Assembly: GCA_016198415.1 (NCBI GenBank)
Contig: JACQIO010000016.1
Coordinates: 6,084 to 70,083 of the forward strand
Length of the DNA: 64,000 bases
DNA from: Candidatus Berkelbacteria bacterium
Lineage (GTDB): Bacteria > Patescibacteriota > UBA1384 > JACPKC01
Reading direction: 5' to 3'
Shown: in pieces, positions 558-56,722 of the stretch
Layout: the number at the start of each line of letters is the position of its first letter
Numbering within the stretch: the stretch's first letter is position 1
The notes under the pieces: generated by a model
The model's input: the letters and a program-made list of their open reading frames with translations, nothing else
What the model was told of the DNA's origin: nothing
Database searches by the model: none
Position numbers and translations under genes: made by a program

Positions 558-2008
558 CCATCCAGCTCCACAACACGCGGACCCGTCGTCTCGAGCCCTT
601 CCAGCCCCTTCAACCCAACGAGGCCGGCATCTACACCTGTGGGCCAACGGTCTACCAGTACACCCACCTGGGGAACTTTCGGACCTACGTGGTGTCTGAT
701 CTCCTCCGGCGCCTCTTGGAGTACCAGGGTTTCGCCGTCAAACACGTCATGAACATCACGGACGTTGGCCACCTGGTGGGGGATGGGGACGAGGGCGAGG
801 ATCGGTTGGAAGTGGGTGCCAAGCGAGAGGGCAAGACTGCCTGGGAGATTGCCAGCTACTACACCGATGCCTTCCTCCACGATCTTGCTCGCCTCAACCT
901 CCGTCAGCCCCACGTCCTGCCGCGGGCAACTCAGCACATCCCCGAGCAGATCGCCCTCATCGAGCAGCTGGAGACCAAGGGCTTTACGTACCGAACGGGC
1001 GACGGGATCTACTTTGAGACCAGCAAGTTGTCAGACTACGGATCCCTCCTTGGTCAGGACCGAGACCAGCTCTTGGCTGGGGCGCGGGTTGAGGTCAACC
1101 CAGAGAAACACCACCCCGCCGACTTTGCGTTGTGGAAGTTTTCGGAGGACAGAAGACAGACGACAGAGGACAGAGCCGATTCGTCCTCCGTCATCCGTCC
1201 TCCGTCATCCGAAAGAAGGCAGATGGAGTGGGACTCGCCCTGGGGCGTCGGCTTCCCGGGCTGGCACATCGAGTGTTCGGCCATGAGCGTCAAGTACCTC
1301 GGCCAGCCGTTCGATCTTCACATTGGTGGCGAAGACCTCGTTTTCCCGCACCACACGAACGAGAGTGCTCAGACAGAGGCGGCCACCGGCCAGCCCCTCG
1401 CCAACTACTGGCTCCATGGGGCGTTCATGAGCGTTGATGGCGCCAAGATGAGCAAGTCGCTCGGCAATACCTACACCGTCGAGGACGTGGTCAAGCGGGG
1501 CCACGATCCATTGGCGTTCCGCTACCTCACGCTCCAGACCCACTACCGCAAACCGCTCAACTTTACCTGGGAGGCGGTCCAGGCGGCCGATCAGGCGCTC
1601 GCCAACCTTCGGGCCCTCGTCCGCGAGCTTCCAGAAGAGGGGACCGAGCTCGATCCTGCTACCGAGGAGGAGTTTCGGACCCACATCGGCCATGATCTGG
1701 GCCTGCCGCAGGCGCTGGCGCTCTTCTGGGACGTGCTCAAATCAGACCGAGAAGCAGGGGAAAAGACCACAGCCGTTCAACACTGGGACCAGGTTTTTGG
1801 CTTGGGCTTGGCCGATCAACTCGGGAAGCTCGAAGAAATTCCGACCGAGGTGAGTGCCCTGGTGGCCAAGCGCGAGCAGGCGCGGGGAGCGGGGGAGTAC
1901 GGCCAGGCCGACGAGCTTCGATCCAAGCTGACTGACCTGGGCTACACCGTCGACGACACCCCCGACGGTCCCAAGGTCCATCGAGTCGAAAAGCCAACAG
2001 AACTGTAG
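404..2008 (+). CDS. cysS: Cysteine--tRNA ligase (class I aaRS). Maximal ORF given. Homology to CysRS begins near nt 557-560 ([10 protein letters not shown]...), so the true start is probably a non-ATG codon overlapping the Zn-ribbon ORF
   Basis: HIGH-type motif [14 protein letters not shown] motif ([10 protein letters not shown]), WHIECSAM zinc-site motif. About 22-aa low-complexity insertion before WDSPWG. No SD before ATG 404. Confidence 0.9.
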
Positions 2009-2014
2009 ACTCTT

Positions 2015-2775
2015 TCACCACCCCACCTACACACCGGAAGTGTAGGTTGGGTGGTGTTATAATGCGGGCATGGCAGTCCGGCACGAATCGATCATTACCG
2101 GCGAGGTCTATCACGTCTTTAATCGTGGCGTTGAGAAGCGAGATCTGTTTATTGACGATGTCGATCGTCAGCACTTTCTCGATGTCCTCAGCTTCTACCT
2201 AGACGAAGTTCAGGCAACCCGCTTCTCATTTCTCACCACAAAGCAGCGACAAAGAATGCTGCAGAAAATGCCCACGCATCCGCGCGTTGAGATCTTGGCC
2301 TACTGCCTGATGGGCAACCACTTCCACCTGATCATCCGCCAGTTGGGCGACGAGGGGATTCGGCGATTTCTCCACCGGGCGCTGAACAGCTACGCTCGAT
2401 ACTTCAACACCCGATACGAGCGAGTCGGTGCGCTCTTCCAGGGTCGATTTCGTGCTGTCCGGGTGACGAGTGATGCCCAGCTTCTTCACCTGATCCGTTA
2501 CCTTCATCTCAACCCATACGTGAGCCATCTTGTGGAGACGCTCGACTCGTACACGTGGAGCTCTCACCCCCTCTATGCTGCCCAACGAGAGACACGACTC
2601 GTCCGCATCACTCAAGGCATGAGTTTCTTTGACAATGACCCAGAGCGATACCGGAAGTTCCTTGAGGATTATCAGGAGTACGCACGTTCGTTGCATCTCC
2701 TCCGGGACATCGCCGAGCAAAGCCGCTGATTTCACACCACCACCCTTTCACTCCGGAAGTGTAGGTGGTGTGGTG
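2015..2775 (+). mobile_element. IS200/IS605-family-like minimal element: Y1 (HUH) transposase gene flanked by subterminal hairpins
   Basis: Left hairpin CACCACCCCACCTACAC-ACCGGAA-GTGTAGGTTGGGTGGTG (2015-2055), right hairpin region with the same CCGGAAGTGTAGGTGGTGTGGTG core (2733-2775), both start with TTTCAC(C). Extended -10 (TGtTATAAT 2054-2062) immediately before ATG 2070 suggests a leaderless transcript. Confidence 0.55.
2070..2729 (+). CDS. IS200-like / REP-associated tyrosine transposase (Y1 HUH transposase, COG1943/RAYT-like)
   Basis: 219 aa. N-terminal YHVFNRG, HUH motif LMGNHFHLII, catalytic-Tyr region SYARYFNTRYERVGALFQGRF typical of Transposase_17/RAYT proteins. Confidence 0.85.
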   Translation: MAVRHESIITGEVYHVFNRGVEKRDLFIDDVDRQHFLDVLSFYLDEVQATRFSFLTTKQRQRMLQKMPTHPRVEILAYCLMGNHFHLIIRQLGDEGIRRFLHRALNSYARYFNTRYERVGALFQGRFRAVRVTSDAQLLHLIRYLHLNPYVSHLVETLDSYTWSSHPLYAAQRETRLVRITQGMSFFDNDPERYRKFLEDYQEYARSLHLLRDIAEQSR

Positions 2776-2826: not shown

Positions 2827-3526
2827 GTTCCTGGCGCTTCAATCACATGGTTCCTCTTCGCGCCGGGGACGTTCACAACAAAGATGGAGGCGGGCTGGGA
2901 TGCGCACCCCTAGCCACCACGCCTCCTCGTTCCGGCCCTTGTTGGTCGGACGAAAGCCTGGTGCGCACCCTGGGTCCGGTGAGCGTTTGACGCTCCAAGC
3001 CGTACCCAAGGTTCATGGCCTCGCCCTTGCGCCGGTTCGAACCCGGCTGCCACTCATTTGGTTTGTCGGGCGAGGCAAACCGGAGGCGGTGATCTGACCA
3101 GCGATCCGGGCTGGTTAGGGAGATCAAGATCATCGCTGATGCGGGAGCGTCGTGCCGAGGGCTGGGCCTCGGCACTGTCACTGGATTCCCGGAAGAACTG
3201 GGTCCAGGATGCTCCGGGACGGAGAGAGCTGCGCTGGTGGTTGACTCCCACCTAAGCCAACTCGGCTGCTCTCCTCCTATCCCACCCGTCACCCCCACTC
3301 GCGGGACGCGTGCCAGGCCTTCGGGTCTGGACCCACGAGCGGGGCTTGCAGGCCGCACTGCGTGGCCACCCACGAAGACCTCCACTTCCCCCACCGAAGC
3401 GCGCGATGGGGCCCCGGGATCACTCGGCGGAGGCACTCATGAGGAGTCGGCGGGGTGCGTTGCACCCACCCGGGGCACCACCCCGTCGACCTCCTCCCAC
3501 AAAAAGCGCCGTAGGGCGCACACACC
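2827..3526 (+). ncRNA. Candidate non-coding transcript or decayed gene remnant (no credible ORF on either strand)
   Basis: About 0.9 kb between tnpA and the next gene. Only short Arg/Pro/Gly-rich overlapping ORFs. Consensus promoter upstream, canonical T-arm-like hairpin GCCGGTTCGAACCCGGC at 3031-3047, GC hairpin near the 3' end. Confidence 0.2.
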
Positions 3527-5326: not shown

Positions 5327-5553
5327 TGCTTCTGGTCGTAACGACCTCGGCGCGTCTACAAATGACCAATAATCAAACTCCAATAACCAGACAAGTTCCA
5401 ATATCCAATGTTCAGTTTGGTTATTCGGACCTTCGGTTATTGTCTGATCATTGAGGCTTGGTCATTGGTCATTGCCTCGCGCACCCTGCTCCTATTGAAC
5501 CACCCCTGTTGGCAGCGTCGAATGGGTCTGCGGCCGGGTGAACATCAAGGCAT

Positions 5554-11619: not shown

Positions 11620-12519
11620 ATGCAAAAGATTCTTTCTCTGCTCGGAGTGGCGGGCCTCTTGATGGTAGCAGCTGGACCATCAACTGCTGCTGCCCAAGAT
11701 GCCTTTGCCGACCCGATCTTTGCTGGTTTCAACCTCAACTGGGTCAGCAATGCTCAGTTCCAGGGCCAGGGACAAGGTCAGCAAACGATTGTTCCCATTG
11801 TCAATAACAACGGGACCAACAACGCTGGGTCTGCCTCGGGTGCCGGGAACGTGACCGTTCCGGTCATCCAGGTGACGCCGGCGCCAACTGCCGGGACGCC
11901 TGTTTCAGGCGGTTCTGGCACTGGTACGTGCAATGCCAACGCCAGTTGCGCAACCGTTCCGGTCACGATGGACCCGGCCAGGCCGGCGATCATTGTGAAC
12001 GGTGGTGACGCGAATGCGGCGGCTGCGGCCTCGGCGGCCACAGCCGGCAACGGTGGTGGTGGCGAGAACGGTGACGGCGGTTCGTCCGCTGCGTCGAGCT
12101 CGTCTGCTGCCAACGCTGGTGGCAATGAGAACGGCGCCGGTGGTGCCAATGCGGCTGCGGCTGCATCGGCTGCTTCAACTGGTGGCGGTAAGGGTGGCAA
12201 CGGTGGCGGGAGCGCCGCTGCCTCAAGTGCTGCCAATGCCGGTGGCAAGGACGGGGCGAGTGCGGCGGCTGCGGCCGCGGCTGGCCCCAATGCCAACGCG
12301 GAAGCCAGGGCCGGTGACGGCAAGGCGGAAGCTAAGGCTGAGTCCAAGAGCGAACCAACCAAGGTTGCTCTGGCCAAGGGCGCGCTCCCTAAGGAGCTCC
12401 CCAAGGCTGGTGCCGAGGCTGGTGCGCTGGCCGTTGGTCTGACCACGCTGACAGGCGCTGGTTCAGCCCTCCTGGCTCGCAAGCGTAAGCTTGACCTGGC
12501 TGACCTCATCGTCGGCTAA
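11620..12519 (+). CDS. Secreted Ala/Gly/Asn-rich surface protein with N-terminal QGQGQG-TIVPIVNN module and C-terminal LPxAG-type sortase-like sorting signal
   Basis: Signal peptide MQKILSLLGVAGLLMVAAGPSTAAA. NAQFQGQGQGQQTIVPIVNNNGTNNAGSASGAGNVTVPVIQ. C-terminus LPKAG + hydrophobic stretch + RKRK tail. Confidence 0.75.
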   Translation: MQKILSLLGVAGLLMVAAGPSTAAAQDAFADPIFAGFNLNWVSNAQFQGQGQGQQTIVPIVNNNGTNNAGSASGAGNVTVPVIQVTPAPTAGTPVSGGSGTGTCNANASCATVPVTMDPARPAIIVNGGDANAAAAASAATAGNGGGGENGDGGSSAASSSSAANAGGNENGAGGANAAAAASAASTGGGKGGNGGGSAAASSAANAGGKDGASAAAAAAAGPNANAEARAGDGKAEAKAESKSEPTKVALAKGALPKELPKAGAEAGALAVGLTTLTGAGSALLARKRKLDLADLIVG

Positions 12520-12556
12520 GGACGCTCTGGTTGGCTGGTACCAGCTGACTGGAGGC

Positions 12557-12590
12557 AAAGAGACCCCGCCCGGGGTCTCTTTGTGTTGGT
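12557..12590 (+). terminator. Intrinsic terminator AAAGAGACCCCG-CC-CGGGGTCTCTTT + GTGTTGG
   Basis: Perfect palindromic GC stem flanked by A and T tracts after stop of 11620..12519. Could act bidirectionally. Confidence 0.55.
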
Positions 12591-12745
12591 ATCACCTTAG
12601 TCCTCCCCTTGCCAACCCCTCCTCCTGACACGCTCATTTCAACACGTCACTTCCTCAAAGACACTCTTCGTTCCTGACGGCCGAAGTTTCTTTGGGAGCG
12701 TGATGCGTCGAAATGGGGATGGTATCCGCCTTTGGCGGATGGATT

Positions 12746-12800
12746 GGTATCTGTGTGATCTGCGAGTCGCCAGGGAGGCGACCTATGTATCTGTGGTGTG
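12746..12800 (-). repeat. Box-hairpin-box intergenic repeat, copy A (minus orientation)
   Basis: RC reads CTCACACCACAGATACATAGG - GTCGCC..GGCGAC hairpin - CAGATCACACAGATACC. Homologous to copies at 19516-19575 and 43484-43543. Confidence 0.5.
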
Positions 12801-12812
12801 AGCTACCCCTGC

Positions 12813-12841
12813 TTGACAGAGCACCGAGAACGCGGTACCCT
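12813..12841 (+). promoter_or_regulatory. Promoter candidate CTTGACAGAG-N17-TACCCT (weak -10)
   Basis: Shares the CTTGACAG -35 context with promoters at 2792 and 13597. Points into the ORF-poor region. Confidence 0.25.
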
Positions 12842-13064
12842 CCGTCCAGCTGAACGCAGCTTTACCTTTGTGAGAGCAACCCACCGGACCTGATGTTGTC
12901 GGCACGGCCGGTAACCAGTGAAGGGGACGTCAGGTCCCGGTGGGTTCACACGAATTGACGGCTGGCTGTCGCTGGGCTCGGGCCGTGAGGCCGTAGGCCC
13001 CGGGGCTTACACCGAGCACGCCGTGGTCTCAGGAGCCACGGATGGCGCCGAGCTAGCCGTCTCA

Positions 13065-13106
13065 ACAACTGGATCCCGCCGGATTAACCCCCCCGACCGG
13101 CGGGAT
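13065..13106. repeat. Perfect 14-bp inverted repeat hairpin CTGGATCCCGCCGG-attaacccccccga-CCGGCGGGATCCAG
   Basis: Seen directly. Lies inside the ORF-poor region 12830-13500. Confidence 0.5.
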
Positions 13107-13511
13107 CCAGCACCAGAGCCCTGCCCTGGTCCACCTTCCCCCAACCAGGGTGGGGTTCCCAGAGCGCCGGACCCGTGCCGGGTCTGGGCGTTGGTGCGAC
13201 CTCTCGCCCGAGCGAGAGGTATCCGGTGAGGAGAACAGAGGTGGGACGGACTCCGTGGCAGAGTTCCTCCGCTCCCAAAGAGCGTGGGCCAACCACCACG
13301 GTGACACCTCGGCACGGCGGAGCCGCGCAGTGCCAGTTGGGGGATTCACATCGCTGACGAACGCCGAGCCCTGGCTCCGGATCGCGTCGGCCTTGCCCCT
13401 AGCCGTCCAGTTTTTCTTGAGCCTGAACGTCCCACCCCTCCCGGGACGTTCACCGCTCGACCCCCTGAAGAGTCCGCCCACGTGCGGACTCTTCCTCTGT
13501 CATGCGGGCAA

Positions 13512-13586
13512 GGGTGAACGTGAATGGTGAAAGGAGAAGGCAGCGTGACGCTTTGCGCTGTACCTTTCACTTTTCACGTTTCACCC
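13512..13586. repeat. GTGAAAG/C heptad-repeat hairpin element, copy 1
   Basis: Forward arm GGGTGAACGTGAATGGTGAAAGGAGAAGG, 20-nt palindromic spacer, reverse arm TACCTTTCACTTTTCACGTTTCACCC. Confidence 0.6.
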
Positions 13587-13596
13587 AAGGTACCCC

Positions 13597-13626
13597 TTGA
13601 CAGGTGGTCGGCATCTGCAGTATCTT
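13597..13626 (+). promoter_or_regulatory. sigma70 promoter TTGACA-N18-TATCTT (homologous to the promoter at 2792)
   Basis: CTTGACAGGTG...ATCTGCAGTATCTT aligns with CTTGACAGATG...ATCCTGGTGTATCAT at 2791-2820. Confidence 0.4.
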
Positions 13627-13632
13627 GCCCCA

Positions 13633-14184
13633 GCAACCTAACAAGTTGACAGAAATCCCTGGGCGAGTGTCTGGTGGGCTGAGGCTCGCCAACATGACGC
13701 AGCGAGGCACCTCGCCTGCGCCCGTTCGAACCTGCTGCAGAAGAATGGAGAGGCGAGTAGACGTTTATCAGCCTCGCTCAGGGATTCACATAACAAGTTC
13801 ATCTGGCTAGCCCCAGGGCCCTGTGGGCATCGGAGACGTCCCTGACCTCGGTCAGGACCGGTGCGCGCATCCTCCTTGAGAAGCGGAGGGGTGAAAGGCT
13901 CGGCTTCCAACAAAGCCCGTCGTGTGATCTCCGGTTCAGCCGCTTCGGCTTGGTGATCACCTTCGGACTTGGCCGATCTTGCCAGATGAACCCTCTTGAA
14001 CGTTCGGTTGGTGGGCGAGGAGTCGTACGCGACCTCTCCCACCGGCCCAACGCCAGCGGCCGGGCCGCGAGCTCCTACCTGGTCCACCTTCCCTAACCAG
14101 CGGAGTCGCGCGGTGCGGCTGCCTCAACGCAGACGGACGACGAGGGCCCCTGTGCCCCCAGAGCATCTCGCGTCCATCTGCCCC
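13633..14184 (+). ncRNA. Candidate non-coding transcript between a promoter and a strong terminator (no credible ORF)
   Basis: About 580 nt. Contains GGAGGGGTGAAAGGCTCGGCTTCCA and GAATCCCGGCC, which loosely resemble RNase P CR-I/CR-V, but the match is too weak to call. Confidence 0.2.
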
Positions 14185-14220
14185 GAATCCCGGCCCTCAA
14201 AGCCGGGATTCACCTTTTCC
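14185..14220 (+). terminator. Intrinsic terminator GAATCCCGGC-cctcaaa-GCCGGGATTC + ACCTTTTCC
   Basis: Perfect 10-bp stem then T-tract, followed by a half-arm of the TTTCAC repeat (CGTTTCACCC). Confidence 0.6.
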
Positions 14221-14243
14221 GTTTCACCCGCTACAGTACGCTT

Positions 14244-15248
14244 ATGTCCACCCTTGATGATCGGAAATCGAAACTCTACGAGCTCCTCAAGCTTGAGGAG
14301 AAAGACGCCCGGATTCGTGCAATCGAGGCGCTGATGGCCGCGCCCAATTTCTGGGCCGATCAAACCCAGGCCACGCAGCTCAGCACTGAACTGGCCCGGC
14401 TCAAACAGACTATTGCCGAGTGGGAAATAGCCGAGACCGATGATCAGGTTCGGGCGCTGGAACTGAAGTCGCTCCTCTCTGGTAAGTACGACGCCAGCAA
14501 CGCCATCGTCAGCTTCCACGCCGGCGCCGGGGGGACCGAGGCCATGGACTGGGCCGGAATGCTCCGGCGGATGATTGAGCGTTGGGCCGAAGGTCGGGGT
14601 TTGCCGGTGACGGAAATCGAGCAGTCGCTCGGTGAGGAGGCCGGCCTCAAGTCCGCCACCCTCAAGATTGCCGGCGAGCACGCCTACGGCTATCTCAAAG
14701 GGGAGGCCGGCGTTCACCGCCTGGTCCGGATCTCGCCGTTCGACGCCGATAAAGCCCGCCATACTTCTTTTGCGCTCATTGAGGTGGTGCCCGAGCTCGC
14801 AGATCTGGGCGATGTGGTGATCGACGAGAAAGACCTCCGGACCGATCTCTTCCGCTCCGGCGGCAAGGGTGGTCAGAACGTCAACAAAGTGGAAACGGCC
14901 GTTCGGATCACGCACCTCCCCACCGGCCTGGTTGCCACCAGCCAGAACGAGCGGTCTCAGGCTCAGAATCGAGCGCTCGCAATGGGCGTCCTGGTTGCCA
15001 AGCTCCAGGCCTTGGCGCACGAGCAGCGGCTCGAGCAGATTGGCGAGCTCAAGGGCGAGCACCGGAAGGTGGAGTGGGGGAGTCAGATTCGCTCCTACGT
15101 CCTCCAGCCCTACCAACTGGTCAAGGATCTCAGGACCGGGCATGAGGAGAGTGATGCCGAGGCTGTCCTTGAGGGCAGGAAGCTGCAGGGGTTTATGGAT
15201 GCCTACCTTGCGTGGCAGGCCACACAAGGGGTGAAACGTGAAAGGTAA
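14244..15248 (+). CDS. prfB: Peptide chain release factor 2
   Basis: SPF motif (RISPFDADKARHTSF) and GGQ motif (GGKGGQNVNKVETAVRITH). Single uninterrupted ORF with no CTT-TGA-C frameshift site. Last 6 codons plus stop lie inside the GTGAAAG repeat. Confidence 0.9.
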   Translation: MSTLDDRKSKLYELLKLEEKDARIRAIEALMAAPNFWADQTQATQLSTELARLKQTIAEWEIAETDDQVRALELKSLLSGKYDASNAIVSFHAGAGGTEAMDWAGMLRRMIERWAEGRGLPVTEIEQSLGEEAGLKSATLKIAGEHAYGYLKGEAGVHRLVRISPFDADKARHTSFALIEVVPELADLGDVVIDEKDLRTDLFRSGGKGGQNVNKVETAVRITHLPTGLVATSQNERSQAQNRALAMGVLVAKLQALAHEQRLEQIGELKGEHRKVEWGSQIRSYVLQPYQLVKDLRTGHEESDAEAVLEGRKLQGFMDAYLAWQATQGVKRER

Positions 15249-15303
15249 AAGGTGAAAGGTGCACGGAGACAGCCCGTTTCACGATTCACCTTTCACGTTT
15301 CAC
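15228..15303. repeat. GTGAAAG/C heptad-repeat hairpin element, copy 2 (overlaps prfB 3' end)
   Basis: GGGGTGAAACGTGAAAGGTAAAAGGTGAAAGGTG - cacggagacagcccg - TTTCACGATTCACCTTTCACGTTTCAC. Confidence 0.6.
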
Positions 15304-15371
15304 TCGTCTAGAGTTCTCGAGGCCTCTCGGGTATGCTGGCGCTGAGCATCGGTGACCAGAAAGGATGACGC

Positions 15372-15674
15372 ATGCCCGGCATGTTCGATCAAATGAAGGC
15401 GATTGCCAAGGCCAAGAAAGTCCAGAACGACCTGAAAAAGACCGAGATTGAGGCGAGCGGGGGCGATGGCGCCGTGACGGTGGTCTTTACCGGCGAACTC
15501 AAGCTCCAGTCCATCACGATTGCCGAGCGGATGCTCGCACCGGAGCGCAAGCAGGAGCTCGAGCGGCTCATCAAAGACACCATGACCCAGGCGATGCAGC
15601 AAGCCCAGGCCTTGGCGGCCGAGAAGACGCGCGAGGTCATGAAGCAAATGGGCGTCAACCTGCCGGGACTCTAG
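15372..15674 (+). CDS. ybaB: Nucleoid-associated protein YbaB/EbfC
   Basis: 100 aa, MFDQMKAIAKAKKVQNDLKK...LPGL. Typical YbaB length and coiled-coil composition. Confidence 0.85.
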   Translation: MPGMFDQMKAIAKAKKVQNDLKKTEIEASGGDGAVTVVFTGELKLQSITIAERMLAPERKQELERLIKDTMTQAMQQAQALAAEKTREVMKQMGVNLPGL

Positions 15675-15677
15675 GTT

Positions 15678-16104
15678 GGTGAAAGGTGAAACGTGAAAGG
15701 TGAAACGACCACGATCAACCTCTCCCGGCCTCATTACCGTCTCGATGCTTGGAAGGAATCACTCAAGCTGGCCAAACTGATCTACGAGCTCAGTCAACGC
15801 TTCCCCGACTCTGAACGGTATGGGTTAGTCAGTCAGATGCGTCGGGCGGCAGTCTCGGTATTGAGTAACATCGCGGAGGGCGCAGCGCGGAATAGCAGAA
15901 AGGAATTTGCCCAGTTTCTCTCAATTGCTCAGGGGTCACTCAGTGAGCTTGAAGCCCAGGTGATCATTTCACAGGAGCTTGGCTATATTGCAGATTCAGC
16001 AGAGGTGCTTGAGCTCCTCGATCGGGTATCTCGTCTTGTCGGTGGATTGCAGAGGAGTTTGCGATGACCCTGGACCTTTCACGTTTCACATTTCACCTTT
16101 CACC
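15678..16104 (+). mobile_element. GTGAAAG-repeat stem whose loop carries a four-helix-bundle protein gene (rRNA-IVS-like cargo element)
   Basis: Forward arm GGTGAAAGGTGAAACGTGAAAGGTGAAACG (15678-15707) and reverse arm CCTTTCACGTTTCACATTTCACCTTTCACC (16075-16104) flank the ORF. Same arms as the cargo-less hairpin copies. Confidence 0.5.
15693..16067 (+). CDS. Four-helix-bundle protein (23S rRNA intervening-sequence protein family, TIGR02436-like)
   Basis: LAKLIYELSQRFPDSERYGLVSQMRRAAVSVLSNIAEGAARNSRKEFAQFLSIAQGSLSELEAQ matches the family consensus. GTG start lies inside the repeat arm. Confidence 0.8.
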   Translation: MKGETTTINLSRPHYRLDAWKESLKLAKLIYELSQRFPDSERYGLVSQMRRAAVSVLSNIAEGAARNSRKEFAQFLSIAQGSLSELEAQVIISQELGYIADSAEVLELLDRVSRLVGGLQRSLR

Positions 16105-16107
16105 ACT

Positions 16108-16689
16108 ATGAAACTCATCGTCGGTCTTGGAAATCCAGGCAAGGAGTACGCCCAGACGCGTCACAACGTTGGGTGGATGGTGCTCGATCGACTGGCGGAG
16201 CAGCTGGGGACCCATCCGTGGTCGCACTCGGAGAAGTTTACGGCTGAGTTGGCTGAGATAGGGGAGGGGATTCACAGAACAATCCTCCTCAAGCCCACCA
16301 CCTTCATGAACAACTCTGGGCGGGCCGTGGAACGACTCCGCCACTTCTCCAAGCTCGAGCCAGCGGACATTGTGGTTGTCCACGACGAGCTGGCGCTTCC
16401 CCTGGGGTCAATGCGCGTGCGGCTGGGCGGAACCTCGGCCGGCCACAACGGGGTAGGCTCAATCATTCACCACCTTGGAACCGAGGCGTTCTGGCGGGTT
16501 CGGATTGGGATCGAGCAGCCAGGCGCAACTCGACCGTACGGGGAGCAGTCGGACTTTGTCCTGGGACGGTTCAGCGCCGAGGAGCGAGTCATCATTGCGC
16601 CCGTCATTGACCGAGCGGTGGCACTCCTGGTAGACTTCAGCTCTTCAGGAACCCTCAGCGACGAGACCATCACCATTCCAGCAGCGTAA
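16108..16689 (+). CDS. pth: Peptidyl-tRNA hydrolase
   Basis: MKLIVGLGNPGKEYAQTRHNVGW... catalytic His motif. Start chosen at the MKLIVGLGNPG ATG rather than the longer ORF. Confidence 0.9.
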   Translation: MKLIVGLGNPGKEYAQTRHNVGWMVLDRLAEQLGTHPWSHSEKFTAELAEIGEGIHRTILLKPTTFMNNSGRAVERLRHFSKLEPADIVVVHDELALPLGSMRVRLGGTSAGHNGVGSIIHHLGTEAFWRVRIGIEQPGATRPYGEQSDFVLGRFSAEERVIIAPVIDRAVALLVDFSSSGTLSDETITIPAA

Positions 16690-19641: not shown

Positions 19642-19717
19642 CGGCGCGTAGCGCAGCCAGGGAGCGCACTACGTTGGGACGTGGAGGACGTGGGTTCAAA
19701 TCCCATCGCGCCGGCCA
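19642..19717 (+). tRNA. tRNA-Pro (anticodon GGG), CCA encoded. Hand-fold gives a 6-nt anticodon loop
   Basis: Acceptor CGGCGCG/CGCGCCG, D-arm GCGC-AGCCAGGGA-GCGC, anticodon arm CTACG-TTGGGA-CGTGG, T-arm GTGGG-TTCAAAT-CCCAT, discriminator G, CCA. Confidence 0.75.
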
Positions 19718-20035: not shown

Positions 20036-21322
20036 ATGCGGATGCAGCCCTTCACCGTTCTCGCGACTGAGGGCCAGGCCCGGCGGGGACGAATCACGAC
20101 GGCGCATGGCACCATCGAGACACCGGCTTTTGTGCCGTGTGCCACGCATGGGTCGATTCGCGGAGTGCCGACGGATCGATTGAGACCTCGCCGCTCCCTT
20201 CGACCTCGCTCAGGACCGGCCTCCGCCTCGGGAGAGTCCGACATCACTCCCGGGGAGATCCCGCGGCTCGAACTGATCCTCTCCAACATTTATCACCTGA
20301 TGCTCCGGCCGGGGATTGAGGCGATCGAAGCGCTCGGTGGCATCCACCGGTTCATGGGGTGGGAGCGCGCGATCATCACGGATTCCGGTGGTTTCCAAGC
20401 CTTTGTGTTCGCGGAACGAACATCCTCCCGAAGCTCGAAGAACGAAGGGGGACCAGCCCAACTGCGCCAAGGCTTCGCTGGACAACCATCCTTGCGGATG
20501 TCGGAAGAGGGGATGACCTTCCGGTCACACCTCGATGGCTCGACGCACCTCCTGACGCCGGAATCAGTGATCGAGATGCAAGAGCGGATCGGGGTCGACA
20601 TCGGCACCTGTTTGGACGTTTGCACTGGCTTTCCGGTGCCCGAACGCGAGGTCGCGCAGGCGGTCGATCAAACCAATCGCTGGGCCGAGCGCTCGATCGG
20701 TCACTGGTCAAGTGTCACTGGTCAACTGTTACTGTACGGCATGGTGCAAGGGAGTATCTACGAGGACCAGCGCCGTCGATCGGCTGAGTTCATTCGAGCA
20801 CTGCCGTTCGCTGGGTTTGCGATTGGCGGCAACATGTACACCTTTGGGGCGACCCTCGCCGAGCTCGCAGCCCAGAAGCCACGGATGTGGGAGGTGGTTG
20901 GCTACACCGCCTCGCTTCTGCCAGAGGACAAGCCGCGGCACCTCTTGGGGGTAGGGGAGCCGAGCGACCTGATTGCTGGGGTCAAGCAGGGGATCGACAC
21001 CTTCGATTGCGTCATGGCGACGCGGATTGCTCGGCACGGGTCCGCTTGGGTCCGGACCGAGCCGGAGGGGTGGGCCTATCGGCGCGAGAATCTCCGGTCG
21101 GCCGAGTTTTCCCGATCGACGGCACCCATCGATGCGCGGTGTGCCTGCCTAGCTTGCCGCCGGCGTGTGCCGCGGGGGTACCTGCGCCACCTCCTGGTCG
21201 AACAGGATCCGGTGGCGGCTGAGCTCCTCACCCTCCACAACCTGACCTTCCTGGCCACGCTCATGGCCGAGATTCGCTCAAGCCTCGAGGTGGGGACGTT
21301 CACGGACCGCTTTGGCGGTTGA
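20036..21322 (+). CDS. tgt: Queuine tRNA-ribosyltransferase with two low-complexity insertions
   Basis: GQARRGRITTAHGTIETPAFVP, YHLMLRPG, DSGGFQ, C-terminal zinc site CACLACRRRVPRGYLRHLL. About 25-aa Arg/Pro/Ser-rich insertion after IRGVPTD. Confidence 0.9.
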   Translation: MRMQPFTVLATEGQARRGRITTAHGTIETPAFVPCATHGSIRGVPTDRLRPRRSLRPRSGPASASGESDITPGEIPRLELILSNIYHLMLRPGIEAIEALGGIHRFMGWERAIITDSGGFQAFVFAERTSSRSSKNEGGPAQLRQGFAGQPSLRMSEEGMTFRSHLDGSTHLLTPESVIEMQERIGVDIGTCLDVCTGFPVPEREVAQAVDQTNRWAERSIGHWSSVTGQLLLYGMVQGSIYEDQRRRSAEFIRALPFAGFAIGGNMYTFGATLAELAAQKPRMWEVVGYTASLLPEDKPRHLLGVGEPSDLIAGVKQGIDTFDCVMATRIARHGSAWVRTEPEGWAYRRENLRSAEFSRSTAPIDARCACLACRRRVPRGYLRHLLVEQDPVAAELLTLHNLTFLATLMAEIRSSLEVGTFTDRFGG

Positions 21323-32528: not shown

Positions 32529-33578
32529 CTACTGAGCGTCTGGTTCCGGTACCGGTGGCCTGAGGGTCGGTTGACTCTCCCCGACTGCAAGTCCCTCAGC
32601 GGTGTCTGGGGCGTCGAGTTGCAAGACCCGATCAACCTTTTCTGCCAGACGGATGTAGTCTGACTGGACAGAGTCAGAGACATTCTTTGCGTTCGTGATA
32701 TGTTTCCCCAAAACCCGCACGCCGTCGCCGAACTTGTGGGTTTCCTGCTGAATGGCCCGGACCGTGGTCAGGACCTGGTGGGCCATGCGGTTCAGACGCT
32801 GGCCCTCTAGGCCAACCATGATGGTGCGCAGGTAGTAGAAGAACGTAGCGGGACTGGTCACAATCACCTTCTCGGCTGCTGCATGATCGTAGAGATCGCG
32901 GAACTTGTCGTTGGTCACCAGCTCGTAGTAGACGGACTCGCTCGGCACGTACATGACGGCAAAGTCAACGGTGCCTTCGTCTGGGAGGAGGTACTTCTTG
33001 CTGATCTCATTGACCCGTCCACGGAAGTCTCGTCTGAAGGCGTTGGCGTAGTTGGTCTTCTCACGTTCGTCTGAAGACTGAAGGTAGCGGTTGAAGTTCT
33101 CCAGCGGGAACTTGGCGTCAATTGGCACAATGCCAGCCTGAAGCTTGATGGCGGCATCGACGATATCGCCGGTCGTAAACCGGTACTGGAAACGAAGCAT
33201 CTCGGCCGGCAGGGCTTGAGCGAGCATGTCCTTGAGTCCCTGCTCACCCAGTCCTCCGCGGAGCTTCGGTGACTTGAGGAAGTCCTGGAACTGCGTCAGT
33301 TGCGTCCCAATCTGGCTCATGGTGCCGAGTTCGCGGTGGACTTGTCCCACCACCGTGGCTGCTCGGTCAAGTCGTTCATTGATGGCCTTGGTTGTGGCGT
33401 CAATCCGCTCTTGCATCCCTTGGATGTTTTGATTGAGCAGGACGGCGGACTGATCATTAGCGCGGGACTGCTCAATCTCGCGCAAGCGCCGCAGGACAAT
33501 CGCAAAGCCTACGCCGAGTCCGACGGCGAGGAGAACGAGTCCAACAATCAGAATGAGTTCCATACCCCGCATTATCAA
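32529..33578 (-). CDS. rmuC: DNA recombination protein RmuC
   Basis: N-terminal TM, long coiled-coil, C-terminal RmuC domain (KYLLPDEGTVDFAVMYVPSESVYYEL). Confidence 0.85.
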   Translation of the reverse strand: MIMRGMELILIVGLVLLAVGLGVGFAIVLRRLREIEQSRANDQSAVLLNQNIQGMQERIDATTKAINERLDRAATVVGQVHRELGTMSQIGTQLTQFQDFLKSPKLRGGLGEQGLKDMLAQALPAEMLRFQYRFTTGDIVDAAIKLQAGIVPIDAKFPLENFNRYLQSSDEREKTNYANAFRRDFRGRVNEISKKYLLPDEGTVDFAVMYVPSESVYYELVTNDKFRDLYDHAAAEKVIVTSPATFFYYLRTIMVGLEGQRLNRMAHQVLTTVRAIQQETHKFGDGVRVLGKHITNAKNVSDSVQSDYIRLAEKVDRVLQLDAPDTAEGLAVGESQPTLRPPVPEPDAQ

Positions 33579-33595
33579 TCATTCATCATGAATCA

Positions 33596-45980: not shown

Positions 45981-46022
45981 CCCATCCACCCTTATACTAC
46001 CATGCTATATAGCATGGTAGTA
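45981..46022. repeat. Perfect AT-rich 40-bp palindrome between convergent genes (probable bidirectional terminator or binding site)
   Basis: CCCTTATACTACCATGCTATA|TAGCATGGTAGTATAAGGG seen directly. Stands out in a GC-rich background. Confidence 0.5.
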
Positions 46023-46037
46023 TAAGGGTCTATACGC

Positions 46038-49143: not shown

Positions 49144-49200
49144 GGTGAAAGGTGAAACGTGAATCGTGAAAGGACAGACCTTTCGCGTTTCACCTGTCTG
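49144..49200. repeat. GTGAAAG/C heptad-repeat hairpin element, copy 4 (between trxA and nrdJ)
   Basis: GGTGAAAGGTGAAACGTGAATCGTGAAAGG - acagac - CTTTCGCGTTTCACC. Confidence 0.6.
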
Positions 49201-51900: not shown

Positions 51901-51963
51901 ATGAATGGTGAAAGGTGAATGGTGAAAGGTGAAACGCCCAAACCTTACGTGTCACGCTTCACC
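51901..51963. repeat. GTGAAAG/C heptad-repeat hairpin element, copy 5 (between nrdR and nrdJ; supplies nrdR stop and nrdJ RBS region)
   Basis: ATGAATGGTGAAAGGTGAATGGTGAAAGGTGAAACG - cccaaacc - TTACGTGTCACGCTTCACC. Confidence 0.6.
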
Positions 51964-55510: not shown

Positions 55511-56722
55511 CTACTTGAGCTTCCGGCGGATGAAGGCCGGGACCTCGAGCTCGTCGTCTTCAACGTGGGGCGAGAGGTCAGCTGGATCGGCTGGACCGGC
55601 TTGCGGGGTGGACTGAGGCTGTGGCTGATACTGGGGATAACTTGGTTGCGGTTGCTCACGGCTGGGGAACCCAAAGCCGCGGCCGGTCAGCGCGCCCAGG
55701 CGGTTGCTCGGCTTGGTGGCCTGGGGCATCGGCTCTGAGGTGGCCTGGGGCTTGGCACCCTGGCGATCTCGAATCTCGTCAAAGCCGGTCGCGATGACCG
55801 TGATCTTCACCTCGCCCGCCATCGCCTCATCAATGATTGAGCCAAAGATAATGTTGGCATCGGTATCGGCAGCTTCGGTGATGGTCTTGGCGGCCTCGTC
55901 GATCTCGTACATCGCCAGGTCCGGTCCACCGGTGATGTTGAAGAGGATCCCCTTGGCGCCCTCAATCGAGAGCTCCAGGAGCGGTGAGTCGATCGCAGCT
56001 CGAGCGGCCTCGACAGCGCGGTTGTCGCCGGTCCCGTACCCAATGCCCATGAGTGCACTGCCAGCATCGGCCATGATGGTCCGGACGTCGGCAAAATCGA
56101 CGTTGATGATGCCGTGGAGCGTGATGAGGTCGGAGATGCCCTGGACGCCCTGGCGGAGGACGTCGTCCACAATCCCAAAGGCATCCATGAGTGAGGTCTT
56201 CTTATCAATGATCTGGAGGAGGCGGTCGTTGGGGATGACGATGAGGGTGTCCACCTTGTCCTTGAGTTCCTGGATCCCCAGCTCGGCCACCTTCTTGCGT
56301 CGAGCCCCTTCAAACGTGAATGGCTTGGTGACCACGCCAACCGTCAGCGCCCCGAGCTCCTTGGCAATCTGGGCCACGAGCGGCGCGGCGCCGGTCCCAG
56401 TGCCACCACCCATGCCACAGGTGGCAAAGACCATGTCGGCACCCTTGAGGACCTCATAGATCTCGTCCTTGTTCTCCTCAGCGGACTTGCGGCCAACTTC
56501 AACATCGGCCCCGGCGCCAAGGCCACCCGTCGTTTCCTTCCCAATCTGGACCTTCGTGGGTGCCTTGTTGTCTAAGAGGGCCTGCGAGTCGGTGTTGATG
56601 GCAATGAACTCAATGCCCTTCACCTTCGCCTCAATCATGCGATTGATGGCGTTACATCCACCACCACCACAGCCAGCGACTTTGATGATGGCAAACGACT
56701 CGATTTCGCTACTCTGGCTCAT
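55511..56722 (-). CDS. ftsZ: Cell division GTPase FtsZ
   Basis: GGGTGTG tubulin signature, NTDSQAL, Pro/Gln-rich C-terminal linker and conserved C-terminal tail. Confidence 0.95.

Follow-up and report, generated by a model that had tools for sequence, protein, structure and literature searches.

The question raised by this locus is what kind of element carries a gene for a four-helix-bundle (4HB) protein, of the family named "23S rRNA intervening sequence protein" (S23p), between two protein-coding genes. The gene lies in a 64-kb stretch of DNA, here called the window, from a Candidatus Berkelbacteria (CPR) bacterium. It is enclosed by inverted arrays of a 7-base unit, GTGAAAS, and arrays of the same unit form hairpins without a gene elsewhere in the window (Table 1). 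The PF05635 4HB gene family is poorly understood at present. The reading favored here, with a probability of roughly 0.6, is a selfish cassette of the intervening sequence (IVS) type that is co-transcribed with its operon and whose arms pair into an RNase III-type stem. Positions 15678–16104 would be an element of the S23p IVS kind that has come to lie between ybaB and pth within an operon of protein genes, and the four gene-less hairpins are probably cassette arms minus the gene, located at other cistron junctions (prfB–ybaB, nrdR–nrdJ, and nrdJ–trx).

With up to one mismatch allowed, the two-heptad pattern GTGAAASGTGAAAS occurs 22 times in the window, whereas shuffles give an expectation of 0.05 and 0 of 100 shuffles reach 22, and period 7 is over-represented among the tandem repeats of the window. 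All 22 matches fall at loci where an earlier note on this DNA had described dispersed GTGAAAG/GTGAAAC arrays, and the arrays amount to four hairpins and one arm pair around the 4HB gene. Every GTGAAAS copy is at a cistron junction, in agreement with the siting at gene 3' ends and short spacers that had been proposed. The hairpin at 13512–13586 is upstream of prfB within a 1.7-kb stretch that lacks a convincing ORF. A promoter-like site (13597–13626) comes after this hairpin. The arms of the hairpin at nrdR–nrdJ are unequal, with five units against about two degenerate units. A half-arm that had been claimed at 14212–14230 did not hold up, as the two-unit match is weak, has no partner arm, and folds no better than shuffles. 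The description of the copies as near-identical was overstated: the heptad arms are common to the copies, but in an alignment of the four hairpins the heptads alone align, and loops and flanks differ. No target-site duplication was seen in this alignment, and no significant similarity was found between the hairpin loops and the cassette interior.

Table 1. Heptad arrays and associated features of the window (positions are those of the whole stretch; a dot marks features assigned to neither strand).
Position	Strand	Feature	Fold or match
1145–1211	+	Second heptad-hairpin family, GACAGAA/GACAGAC/GACAGAG and complement, in frame within cysS	−35.2 kcal/mol, z −5.3
5361–5473	.	Third heptad-hairpin family (AATGACC/AATAATC ... 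TTGGTCA), intergenic, after a terminator-like hairpin	Arms 34 nt, 79% complementary, 45 nt apart
13512–13586	.	Gene-less heptad hairpin with inner loop hairpin	−45.2 kcal/mol, z −5.6
14212–14230	+	3'-arm-like two-unit stretch CACCTTTTCCGTTTCACC just 5' of prfB start	Weak match; fold z −0.7
15228–15303	.	Gene-less heptad hairpin, prfB–ybaB junction	−41 kcal/mol, z −6.7; arms 32 nt, 84% complementary
15678–15707	+	5' arm of cassette, four heptads GGTGAAAG GTGAAAC GTGAAAG GTGAAAC	Pairs with 3' arm in MFE and centroid folds
15693–16067	+	Cargo gene, 124-aa 4HB protein, PF05635 (S23p)	Profile and structure matches
16075–16104	+	3' arm of cassette, inverted complement of 5' arm (CCTTTCAC GTTTCAC ATTTCAC CTTTCACC)	Pairs with 5' arm in MFE and centroid folds
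49144–49200	. (operon −)	Gene-less heptad hairpin, nrdJ stop (49212) to trx start (49089)	Weaker fold, z −2.9
51901–51963	. (operon −)	Asymmetric heptad hairpin, nrdR–nrdJ junction	Weaker fold, z −2.1

The cargo belongs to the 23S rRNA IVS protein family, as had been recognized from its predicted product. The ORF matches PF05635 (23S_rRNA_IVP) with an E value of 5.8e-36, above the curated cut-off, and the protein matches PDB 2GSC (E 6.9e-33). The proposed GTG start in the 5' arm, inside the third heptad, is the first possible start of the ORF, but the public annotation of P0001, a Berkelbacteria protein 99% identical to the cargo, begins 7 codons later, at ATC. The 5' arm begins 4 nt past the ybaB stop (15674) and contains TGA in all three frames; the 3' arm ends 3 nt before the pth ATG (16108), and the cargo gene is on the strand of ybaB and pth. 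In the predicted fold of 15665–16115, both 30-nt arms are paired with each other in the MFE and centroid structures alike. The energy of the whole-cassette fold is no better than that of shuffles (z −1.06), and the terminal stem alone stands out. The cassette is between protein genes rather than inside a 23S or 16S rRNA gene, and no rRNA or Rfam matches besides three tRNAs were found in the window. The cargo protein also weakly matches PF22296 (bAvd; E 1.9e-05). Avd, the DGR accessory protein, has a distantly related fold and forms a pentameric ring, but the cargo gene adjoins neither a reverse transcriptase nor template or variable repeats, its neighbors being ybaB and pth, and we know of no Avd genes with bracketing heptad arrays. 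An identity as DGR accessory Avd was rejected, given a match below the Pfam cut-off (25.6 bits versus 40) and no adjoining reverse transcriptase.

The arms also alter the ends of neighboring genes, the identities of which (prfB, ybaB, pth, nrdR, nrdJ, and trx) agree with profile matches. The prfB reading frame ends in the first arm of the hairpin at prfB–ybaB, which encodes its final residues, GVKRER, and its stop codon (15246–15248); RF2 structures align to the prfB product only up to residue 323–327 of 334. Likewise, the short arm of the hairpin at nrdR–nrdJ encodes the nrdR tail, EVKRDT, and the stop (51945–51947), and NrdR structures align only up to residue 165 of 182. These results uphold the heptad-derived tails that the earlier note had read in both genes. 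Its placing of the nrdJ ribosome-binding site in an arm was incorrect: GAGGAGG is just outside the long arm, which ends beside it. Remodeling of gene ends extends to other genomes, where the arms of cassettes between rmlB and rmlA supply the RmlB stop and N-terminal extensions of RmlA.

Across bacteria, the heptad-bracketed build is the norm for the PF05635 4HB family. Relatives were sampled at 80 metagenome, 27 viral, and 7 plasmid loci. Significant inverted repeats flank the 4HB gene at 53 of 73 testable metagenome loci, heptad arms flank it at 20 of 26 viral loci, and both arms are present at 5 of 7 plasmid loci from cultured cyanobacteria, including Nostoc and Calothrix plasmids; most relatives of the gene share the association seen in the window. 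Period 7 fits best in 62 of the 74 flanks examined upstream of 4HB genes and 61 of the 75 downstream (123/149, versus 12/110 controls), and control regions 600–900 nt away from the 4HB genes have periods that are multiples of 3. The arms mostly contain 4–5 units, the lower bound of which is an effect of the detection threshold. The unit varies between loci and stays matched between the two arms of a locus (Hamming distance 1.17 versus 2.98 for shuffles, with 0 of 1000 shuffles reaching 1.17), revealing that complementary arms co-vary. Polarity is also constant. Stops in three frames are found in 39 of 48 5' arms compared to 8 of 48 arm complements, and the stop-bearing arm is first in 58 of 59 GTGAAAS pairs. 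In a Burkholderiales MAG, too, a 4HB gene with GTGAAAS arms on both sides lies between dnaK and dnaJ, which supports the proposal that arms and gene are one unit. Among cassette loci compared by blastn with E. coli rRNA, the only overlap is at L175, a true 23S helix-45 IVS with heptad arms and a protein of the cargo's subfamily. The heptad-arm build of 4HB loci in metagenome, viral, and plasmid sets, nearly all outside rRNA, is new.

The cassettes are co-oriented with their neighbors. The upstream flanking coding strand is the same as that of the cassette at 21 loci and opposite at 2; downstream, it is the same at 17 loci and opposite at 5. Cassettes were found within rml operons, within cas operons, and between dnaK and dnaJ. 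This co-orientation in operons, with arms giving neighbors stops and N-terminal extensions, is likewise new, as are cassette replacement at one site in near-identical strains and the sharing of a cassette's unit by gene-less arrays. At the rmlB–rmlA site of loci L201 and L204, RmlB is 97.2% and RmlA 97.7% identical, yet identity falls to 67.6% between the 4HB proteins and the arms consist of different heptads; no empty site was recovered. Of 46 extra, gene-less arrays, 15 (33%) have the unit of the cassette on the same contig, a fivefold excess over the 6% expected. Replacement supports mobility or exchange, and unit sharing a link between gene-less arrays and cassettes, both in line with the earlier suggestion of cargo-carrying and cargo-less versions of one mobile element, but the hairpins are not copies in the MITE sense. 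With unrelated loops and no sign of target-site duplication, descent of the hairpins from a cassette is read from the shared heptad only.

The anatomy of the cassette matches that of the S23p-carrying 23S IVSs of Coxiella burnetii and Leptospira (PMC4990558), which bears out the suggested link to rRNA IVSs. In the Coxiella IVS, the S23p ORF comes after 3–4 tandem heptamers, GACAGAT, the number of which varies by strain, and RNase III cuts were mapped inside a 28-bp terminal stem (PMC4990558). The window cassette similarly has a sense PF05635 ORF in its loop, four GTGAAAS units that overlap the first start where the IVS has heptamers directly before the ORF start, and 30-nt terminal inverted repeats compared to a stem of ~28 bp. 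Like the IVS, it would lack a promoter and ride the host transcript. Unlike the IVS, it is between protein genes, and a single blastn-tested cassette locus, L175, overlaps rRNA; its arms are recruited as stop codons and coding sequence of neighbors, gene-less copies occur at several cistron junctions, and another heptad family is in frame in cysS. The stem of the IVS is cut by RNase III, whereas the stem here is known from its predicted fold. The hairpin in cysS shares an identical 6-base core with the Coxiella heptamer (PMC4990558). It adds ~18 residues in the loop between the LWK and WDSPWG motifs, at residues ~200–217 in an alignment to CysRS 3SP1.

According to the favored reading of an IVS-type cassette in mRNA, the element would be transcribed along with the host operon, lacking its own promoter, and the arms would pair in the transcript to form a duplex of ~28 bp (4 x 7), the substrate type cut by RNase III in rRNA IVSs. 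Cutting could excise the cassette RNA or part it from the cistrons on either side, or leave ends capped by stems. That RNase III cleaves inside the stem is established for rRNA IVSs (PMC4990558), and we infer RNase III-type processing in mRNA here. The purine-rich arm would be encountered first on either strand, and the arms may end prfB and nrdR because its TGA in three frames halts incoming ribosomes at the cassette edge. The complementary arm, open in all frames, could be read into proteins. As DNA, arms and gene together would be a single selfish cassette, exchangeable and with precise insertion at gene junctions. In cassettes whose 3' arm encodes the RmlA N-terminus, cleavage of the stem would cut the rmlA mRNA, which argues against obligatory cleavage. 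A sense-strand excess of G.U among arm mismatches was sought and none was found (48 sense versus 43 antisense, p 0.68), and more than half of the mismatches are transversions. Selection for sense-RNA pairing of the arms is thus not demonstrated, and a DNA-level pairing or homogenizing mechanism would fit equally well.

It is possible, though doubtful, that the heptad arrays are instead protein-binding sites, most plausibly for the ring-shaped 4HB pentamer. Every subunit would recognize a single heptad, made up of a conserved G-T-R-A core and a 3-base variable spacer. A parallel is the TRAP ring, which reads spaced triplets. Binding to the 5' arm could autoregulate the cargo gene, whose start is in or beside that arm, and the protein may have effects in trans at gene-less arrays as well, or mark cassette ends for recombination. 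Neither pairing nor stop codons alone is a sufficient reason for the conserved core, in which G precedes TGA/TAA in 39 of 41 units; TGA or TAA is present in 46 of 66 units compared to 32% expected. The protein contains a strongly conserved RRAxxSxxxNIAEGxxR motif, and the solved member of the family, 2GSC, is a homopentameric toroid (PMC4990558). Arms of mostly 4–5 units point to such a ring, but with a lower bound set by the detection threshold. Gene-less arrays carrying the unit of the resident cassette are consistent with binding, and the missing sense-strand wobble bias suits recognition over RNA pairing. The heptad core class tracks protein clade (identity 52.5% within versus 45.6% between, 0 of 1000 permutations), a signal confounded by source collection. 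However, at a finer level than the clade, identity between proteins does not follow the unit (Spearman −0.03), and the proteins of the window and L077 have one common unit at 45% identity. Moreover, the native Coxiella IVS yielded no detectable S23p (PMC4990558), and the inverted layout and matching of the arms need a separate explanation.

It is unlikely that the elements are MITE-type DNA transposons, in which the heptad arrays would be terminal inverted repeats for a transposase supplied in trans, such as a Y1/RAYT enzyme that works on DNA hairpins, the 4HB gene mere cargo, and the hairpins non-autonomous copies. Different cassettes at one site in near-identical strains, occurrence across phyla, one heptad unit at five junctions within 64 kb, heptad repeats in frame in coding genes (cysS here; ybeY at L076), and mismatches symmetric between strands are all consistent with such mobility, and a RAYT-like gene is present in the window (2070–2729; Y1_Tnp, E 7.1e-07). 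However, this gene is flanked by its own CACCACCCCACCTACAC/GTGTAGGT..GGTGGTG hairpins, which are non-heptadic, unrelated to the heptad arms, and found at two places in the window and no others. Neisseria Correia, enterobacterial ERIC, and Rickettsia palindromic elements (RPE) are inverted-repeat, MITE-type elements co-transcribed with genes; Correia elements are cut by RNase III, and RPE are inserted in frame in coding genes, like the cysS hairpin. They have a conserved full-length sequence and target-site duplications, whereas the heptad arms alone are common here and the loops differ, with no conserved internal sequence and no duplication seen. Elsewhere, a 4HB gene is near 1 of 120 GTGAAAS loci, where no recurrent transposase was noticed, and the unit changes fast while arms stay matched, which is unusual for transposase-binding ends.

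The earlier likening to REP/BIME elements with RAYT is valid for siting, as short extragenic hairpins at 3' ends or between operon cistrons, many per genome, and a RAYT-like Y1 transposase gene is in the window; with other hairpins around that gene, the analogy is functional only. A REP is one imperfect palindrome flanked by a conserved tetranucleotide and, to our knowledge, carries no gene in the loop, whereas the heptad hairpins are arrays of a 7-base unit. The GTGAAAS copies conform to the extragenic siting of REPs, but the GACAGAN copy inside cysS does not.

Dispersed heptanucleotide repeats are known in cyanobacteria as STRR. Others are the TAACTGA repeats of Beggiatoaceae, cyanobacteria, and Bacteroidetes (PMC4679880) and the four-heptamer elements of Geobacter metallireducens (PMC2700814). 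Like the arrays here, they have a genome-specific 7-base unit in 2–6 copies, are mostly intergenic near starts or stops, have three-frame stops overlapping gene ends in the forward direction and a translatable reverse, and are patchily distributed in phylogeny; arrays of this kind flank the 4HB genes on Nostoc and Calothrix plasmids. The repeats described in PMC4679880 and PMC2700814 are mostly direct single arrays, with no connection made to a 4HB/IVS gene, whereas the arrays here are inverted pairs enclosing a 4HB gene or a short loop. That the arrays are functionless simple repeats, produced by slippage, made quasi-palindromic by template switching, and incidental beside 4HB genes, is already disfavored and very improbable: in many bacteria heptanucleotides are the most frequent class of long simple repeat (Mrazek 2007, as cited in PMC4679880), other genomes hold 83 solo and 14 long (8–44 units) GTGAAAS arrays, and unit number differs among Coxiella strains (PMC4990558), but the arrays are exactly at 4HB borders, with period 7, tight arm length, arms matched within the locus, constant polarity, and a conserved core.

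Finally, the 4HB pentamer may, tentatively, be regarded as a putative protein that recognizes the sequence of its own arrays, each subunit taking one 7-base unit, such that gene and arms constitute a self-recognizing module. If this is true, the protein would bind its own arms and gene-less arrays of the same unit genome-wide, and would govern translation or processing where cistrons meet and/or direct new copies of the cassette to further junctions. An orphan family of very large size, with 7,880 relatives at E <= 1e-10 in one search, would also gain a function, and rRNA IVSs and dispersed heptanucleotide repeats (STRR, TAACTGA, and similar) would be parts of one system.

The GTGAAAS arrays (S = C or G) described in the earlier note are real features of the window. 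With one mismatch allowed, the two-heptad pattern GTGAAASGTGAAAS has 22 matches in the 64 kb against 0.05 expected, all at loci listed in that note, and period 7 stood out in the window by Tandem Repeats Finder as well as in a scan of periods. The genes named there from sequence (prfB, ybaB, a cargo gene for a four-helix-bundle (4HB) protein, pth, nrdR, nrdJ and trx) were likewise confirmed. The GTGAAAS elements all lie at cistron junctions of two operons, namely prfB/ybaB, ybaB/pth, nrdR/nrdJ and nrdJ/trx. At ybaB/pth the arms enclose the cargo ORF and form a cassette; the other hairpins are gene-less.

Features of the window with their positions, setting and fold or profile statistics
Feature	Position	Strand or setting	Fold or match
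prfB	14244-15248		
ybaB	15372-15674		
Cargo ORF	15693-16067		PF05635, E 5.8e-36
pth	16108-16689		
nrdR, nrdJ, trx		minus strand	
Cassette arm pair	15678-15707 / 16075-16104	encloses ORF	
GTGAAAS hairpin	13512-13586	gene-less	-45.2 kcal/mol, z -5.6
GTGAAAS hairpin	15228-15303	gene-less	-41 kcal/mol, z -6.7
GTGAAAS hairpin, weaker	49144-49200	gene-less	z -2.9
GTGAAAS hairpin, weaker and asymmetric	51901-51963	gene-less	z -2.1
GACAGAA/GACAGAC/GACAGAG and complement hairpin	1145-1211	in frame within cysS	-35.2 kcal/mol, z -5.3
AATGACC...TTGGTCA hairpin, third heptad family	5361-5473	intergenic	
Single period-7 array GGTCACT GGTCAAG TGTCACT GGTCAAC TGTTACT	20699-20734	within apparent tgt (queuine tRNA-ribosyltransferase) coding region	
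Single period-7 array ATCAATC (minus strand ATGATTG/ATGATTC)	33574-33603	directly 5' of small membrane-protein ORF start, minus strand	

The four gene-less hairpins have only the heptads in common, and their loops vary in length and sequence. Descent of these hairpins from the cassette by deletion was rejected, given that the loops have no significant similarity to the cassette interior (p 0.19-1.0). Alignment of the four revealed neither a target-site duplication nor conserved flanks, and the only recurring flank feature is a degenerate outer unit, CAAGGG, in three copies. No intrinsic terminators were found at the hairpins and no T-tracts downstream of them, and Rfam returned nothing relevant for the whole window at the gathering threshold or for 12400-14300 at E <= 1. 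The sequence at 14212-14230, previously counted as a half-arm, gave no significant fold signal; having no partner arm either, it was rejected as the relic of a second cassette.

[quoted passage not shown] A 99% identical protein (P0001) is annotated as Candidatus Berkelbacteria, which, with the 68% DNA match to an Uhrbacteria MAG described below, points to a CPR bacterium as the source of the window. The next relatives of the protein are about 65% identical and mostly proteobacterial. The earliest possible start of the cargo is a GTG within the third heptad, and the public annotation begins 7 codons downstream. When the whole 451-nt segment was folded, the arms paired in the minimum-energy and centroid structures alike. 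The strand reading GTGAAAS has a TGA in every frame within three units, whereas its complement has all frames open. In keeping with these three-frame stops, prfB and nrdR both end within the first arm of their hairpins, as ...QGVKRER-stop and, in minus-strand view, ...EVKRDT-stop, in line with the proposal that heptads supply both tails. Alignment to the solved RF2 and NrdR structures gives out 7-17 residues short of the prfB and nrdR ends. These sequence comparisons fit a repeat-derived origin for the two tails, with the caveat that C-termini vary naturally.

Heptad arms also accompany relatives of the cargo in other genomes. When an alignment of relatives was used as the scanning profile, 80 metagenome loci were recovered. 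They are the relatives nearest to a single query (45-60% identity) and may not represent the whole family. Flanking inverted repeats stood well above shuffled controls at 53 of the 73 testable loci. Period 7 fitted best in 62 of the 74 upstream flanks and in 61 of the 75 downstream ones, the remainder being mostly of period 8, whereas control regions 600-900 nt away gave coding periods, that is, multiples of 3. Most arms contain 4-5 units. The unit varies between loci (GTGAGGC, GTGACAA, GTGATAA, GTGGCGA, GTAAATA and others), whereas the two arms of one locus share theirs, at a mean Hamming distance of 1.17; shuffling arms between loci gave 2.98, and 0 of 1000 shuffles were as low. TGA or TAA is present in 46 of 66 units, against 32% expected from composition, and a G stands before the T in 39 of 41, giving a G-T-R-A core and then three variable positions. 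Of the 48 5' arms, 39 have a stop in every frame; for their complements the figure is 8 of 48.

Viral contigs, which may contain prophage or host DNA, contributed 27 4HB relatives, with heptad or octad arms at 20 of 26 testable loci, mostly built on AGGCTNN or AGTCTNN cores. Core class follows protein clade, with 52.5% identity within and 45.6% between classes (reached by 0 of 1000 permutations) and collection of origin as a confounder. Plasmids of cultured bacteria, chiefly Nostoc, Calothrix and Anabaena, also carry relatives; of 7 loci inspected, 5 have both heptad arms and all 7 have at least one array. Comparison of E. coli rRNA with the cassette loci by blastn matched L175 alone, a genuine 23S helix-45 intervening sequence (IVS) with heptad arms; among the loci tested, the rRNA setting that gave the family its name is thus the exception. 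Together, the results indicate that the general form is a cassette with matched inverted heptad arms, placed at gene junctions within ordinary operons of many phyla and also on viral contigs.

Orientation and neighbouring genes point to the operon as the usual setting. Among loci where the strand of a flank was callable, using heuristic coding-strand assignments, the upstream flank was on the cassette strand at 21 and opposite at 2, and the downstream flank at 17 and 5, respectively. Three different 4HB relatives occupy the rmlB/rmlA junction, where the RmlB stop comes from the 5' arm and RmlA has an N-terminal extension read from the 3' arm (MPNPHHPSPIPHPP..., MTDIQANHQSPITIHQSPITIH...). Loci L201 and L204 have RmlB proteins 97.2% and RmlA proteins 97.7% identical, whereas the 4HB proteins at the same junction are 67.6% identical and the heptads differ (GGGGATG versus GGTGAAT). 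This pair is the best evidence for mobility: either one cassette has replaced another, or two were inserted independently at the same site. The L204 cassette lies at 3001-3381; L203 and L204 come from one sample (JGI 3300056831), a natural system for cassette turnover.

Further cassettes lie at nrdB/nrdA, at cas6/cas4, as on plasmid pANA02 of Anabaena sp. 90 (L240), and at cmr2/cmr3, as between cas10/cmr2 and cmr3 on a plasmid of Picosynechococcus PCC 7003 (L242). In a clustering study on a large scale, "23S rRNA IVP" was listed among proteins tied to CRISPR adaptation modules (PMC10910872), and passenger insertion within cas loci may lie behind that reported statistical association of the 4HB family. 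Within a few kb of the cassettes, the contigs also carry 46 extra heptad arrays that lack a gene, 15 of which (33%, against 6% expected) have the cassette's unit with at most one mismatch, and this sharing generalises the window's pattern of cassette plus gene-less arrays to other loci. No published tie between non-rRNA 4HB genes and heptad arms was found in the literature searched, and the family-wide rule of matched inverted heptad arms, operon-junction insertion and exchange between strains appears to be undescribed there.

The GTGAAAS unit itself is widespread, with the exact three-unit pattern matching over 120 loci spread across many phyla. Among 156 arrays there are 34 tight hairpins, 25 pairs 61-700 nt apart, 83 single arrays and 14 long ones, and the stop-bearing arm leads in 58 of 59 pairs. 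At 120 genome loci, a 4HB gene adjoins the arrays only in a Burkholderiales MAG (L077), where four units and their complement surround the gene between dnaK and dnaJ. As in the window, its GTG start lies within the innermost heptad. The two proteins are just 45% identical, so a common GTGAAAS unit does not imply recent transfer. The broader proposition that the same heptad marks close protein kinship was rejected, since unit distance is uncorrelated with protein identity beyond identical units. A Candidatus Uhrbacteria MAG (L076) with 68% DNA identity to window 55775-56484 carries (CGTTTCA)5 at 795-835 within the ybeY endoribonuclease gene, in the open orientation between the DVLSFP and LGDL motifs, where it translates as SVSRFTFHVSRFT.

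Other GTGAAAS arms enclose different contents. In a Verrucomicrobiae locus (L021, 7427-7803) they surround a 107-aa ORF with no match to the 4HB profile, and in an Alistipes MAG (L061, 2026-2636) a 540-nt insert with no clear ORF and repeat translations of "ARNDK/ARNDIS" type. Very long GTGAAAS-type arrays of 44, 25 and 33 units occur in Methylotuvimicrobium (L023, 3917-4224), Methylomicrobium (L046, 1711-1885) and a Desulfococcaceae genome (L094, 5418-5648), respectively, and look like expanded microsatellite forms of the unit.

The earlier link to IVSs of 23S rRNA turns out to be literal, in that the window cassette has the parts of the Coxiella IVS in the same order, but in an mRNA operon. 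The Coxiella burnetii 23S IVS contains an S23p (PF05635) ORF after three or four tandem heptamers, the number varying with strain; RNase III cuts within its stem in vitro, and RACE places the 5' cut where the first heptamer begins. Once excised, the RNA is unstable, and production of S23p required an engineered ribosome-binding site (PMC4990558). The window element resembles S23p-type IVSs in build and, on the account favoured here, would resemble them in working. Because it lies outside rRNA, it departs from the location by which IVSs are recognized.

The best-supported account is that the cassette would be transcribed together with its host operon, that the arms would pair into a predicted duplex of about 28 bp, and that this duplex would be a substrate for RNase III, by analogy with cleavage of the Coxiella, Leptospira and Salmonella IVSs. 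The gene-less hairpins would be the same device minus the ORF. Two findings temper this account, as does the conserved core considered below. Arm mismatches, used as a test of RNA-level pairing, gave no strand-specific G.U excess (48 sense G.U versus 43 A.C, p 0.68), a negative result for pairing specifically in the sense RNA. At some loci the 3' arm encodes the N-terminus of the next protein, so stem cleavage there would destroy that message; alternatively, ribosomes terminating in the 5' arm may melt the stem, resulting in translational coupling.

The main rival to IVS-type processing is that the 4HB protein would read the heptad array in the manner of TRAP. Such reading is suggested by the G-T-R-A core, which neither pairing nor stop codons account for, by arms of 4-5 units and by the family's pentameric ring; we nonetheless consider it unlikely. 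It is also possible that the elements are DNA-level MITEs served by a trans-acting transposase, but they come without target-site duplications, conserved interiors or a candidate enzyme, and the RAYT-like gene of the window has its own, different flanking hairpins. Pure slippage is disfavoured by border-specific enrichment, matched arms, a narrow length range and constant polarity.

The likeness to REP/BIME elements proposed in the earlier note stands as regards position and probable RNA-level effects but does not extend to membership, and the same applies to Correia, ERIC and RPE elements. In its phenomenology, the window element overlaps with cyanobacterial STRR, with the TAACTGA repeats (PMC4679880) and with the four-heptamer elements of Geobacter (PMC2700814). 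No link of these three to a 4HB gene was found in the literature searched, and the TAACTGA paper mentions neither a 4HB protein nor an IVS.

The window contains other heptads. Alignment of cysS to CysRS 3SP1 places an 18-residue insertion exactly at its hairpin, and the 6-base core of the GACAGAN unit is that of the Coxiella IVS heptamer GACAGAT. The array in tgt may, from its sequence, be a further in-frame heptad insertion. The ATCAATC array is placed like those reported for TAACTGA repeats.

Several separate features were observed. A 219-aa IS200-like Y1 transposase, RAYT-like (2070-2729; PF01797, E 7.1e-07), is flanked on both sides by one 17-bp-stem hairpin, CACCACCCCACCTACAC ... GTGTAGGTTGGGTGGTG, at 2016-2056 and about 2735-2775; CTTTCAC motifs adjoin both hairpins, and the arrangement of 2016-2775 in this CPR genome is REPtron-like. 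About 1.7 kb 5' of prfB (12520-14243) has no convincing ORF or Rfam match, which is unusual for a compact CPR genome; it may encode an RNA, act as a long leader or consist of decayed genes. This region contains a good sigma-70-like site, TTGACA-18-TATCTT (13597-13626), just after a heptad hairpin, and the octamer GGATTCAC at 13343, 13783 and 14205. A perfect 42-bp palindrome, ACCCTTATACTACCATGCTAT/ATAGCATGGTAGTATAAGGGT (45988-46029), is far more AT-rich than the window (61.5% GC). Beside tRNA-Glu and tRNA-Thr, ARAGORN and Rfam (52.3 bits) both place a tRNA at 19642-19717, with the anticodon undetermined by ARAGORN ("gg" at position 35).

IVS elements, with the S23p ORF they carry, became known some 30 years ago, and the PF05635 family takes its name from rRNA. 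To our knowledge, no origin, function or means of spread has been accepted for them. In the present sample, rRNA placement is a rare special case (1 locus) of a cassette that can apparently be swapped between near-identical strains. The arms and heptad hairpins rewrite the ends of essential genes (RF2, NrdR, RmlA, CysRS), and annotators should be warned that terminal tails like VKRER-stop, VKRDT-stop or MPNPHHPSPIPHPP are repeat-derived. Nostoc punctiforme, Anabaena sp. 90, Picosynechococcus PCC 7003 and Xanthomonas campestris are cultivable organisms for direct work on RNase III processing and protein-repeat binding. Finally, the results join three separately described oddities: rRNA IVSs, orphan "four helix bundle" genes and dispersed heptanucleotide repeats.
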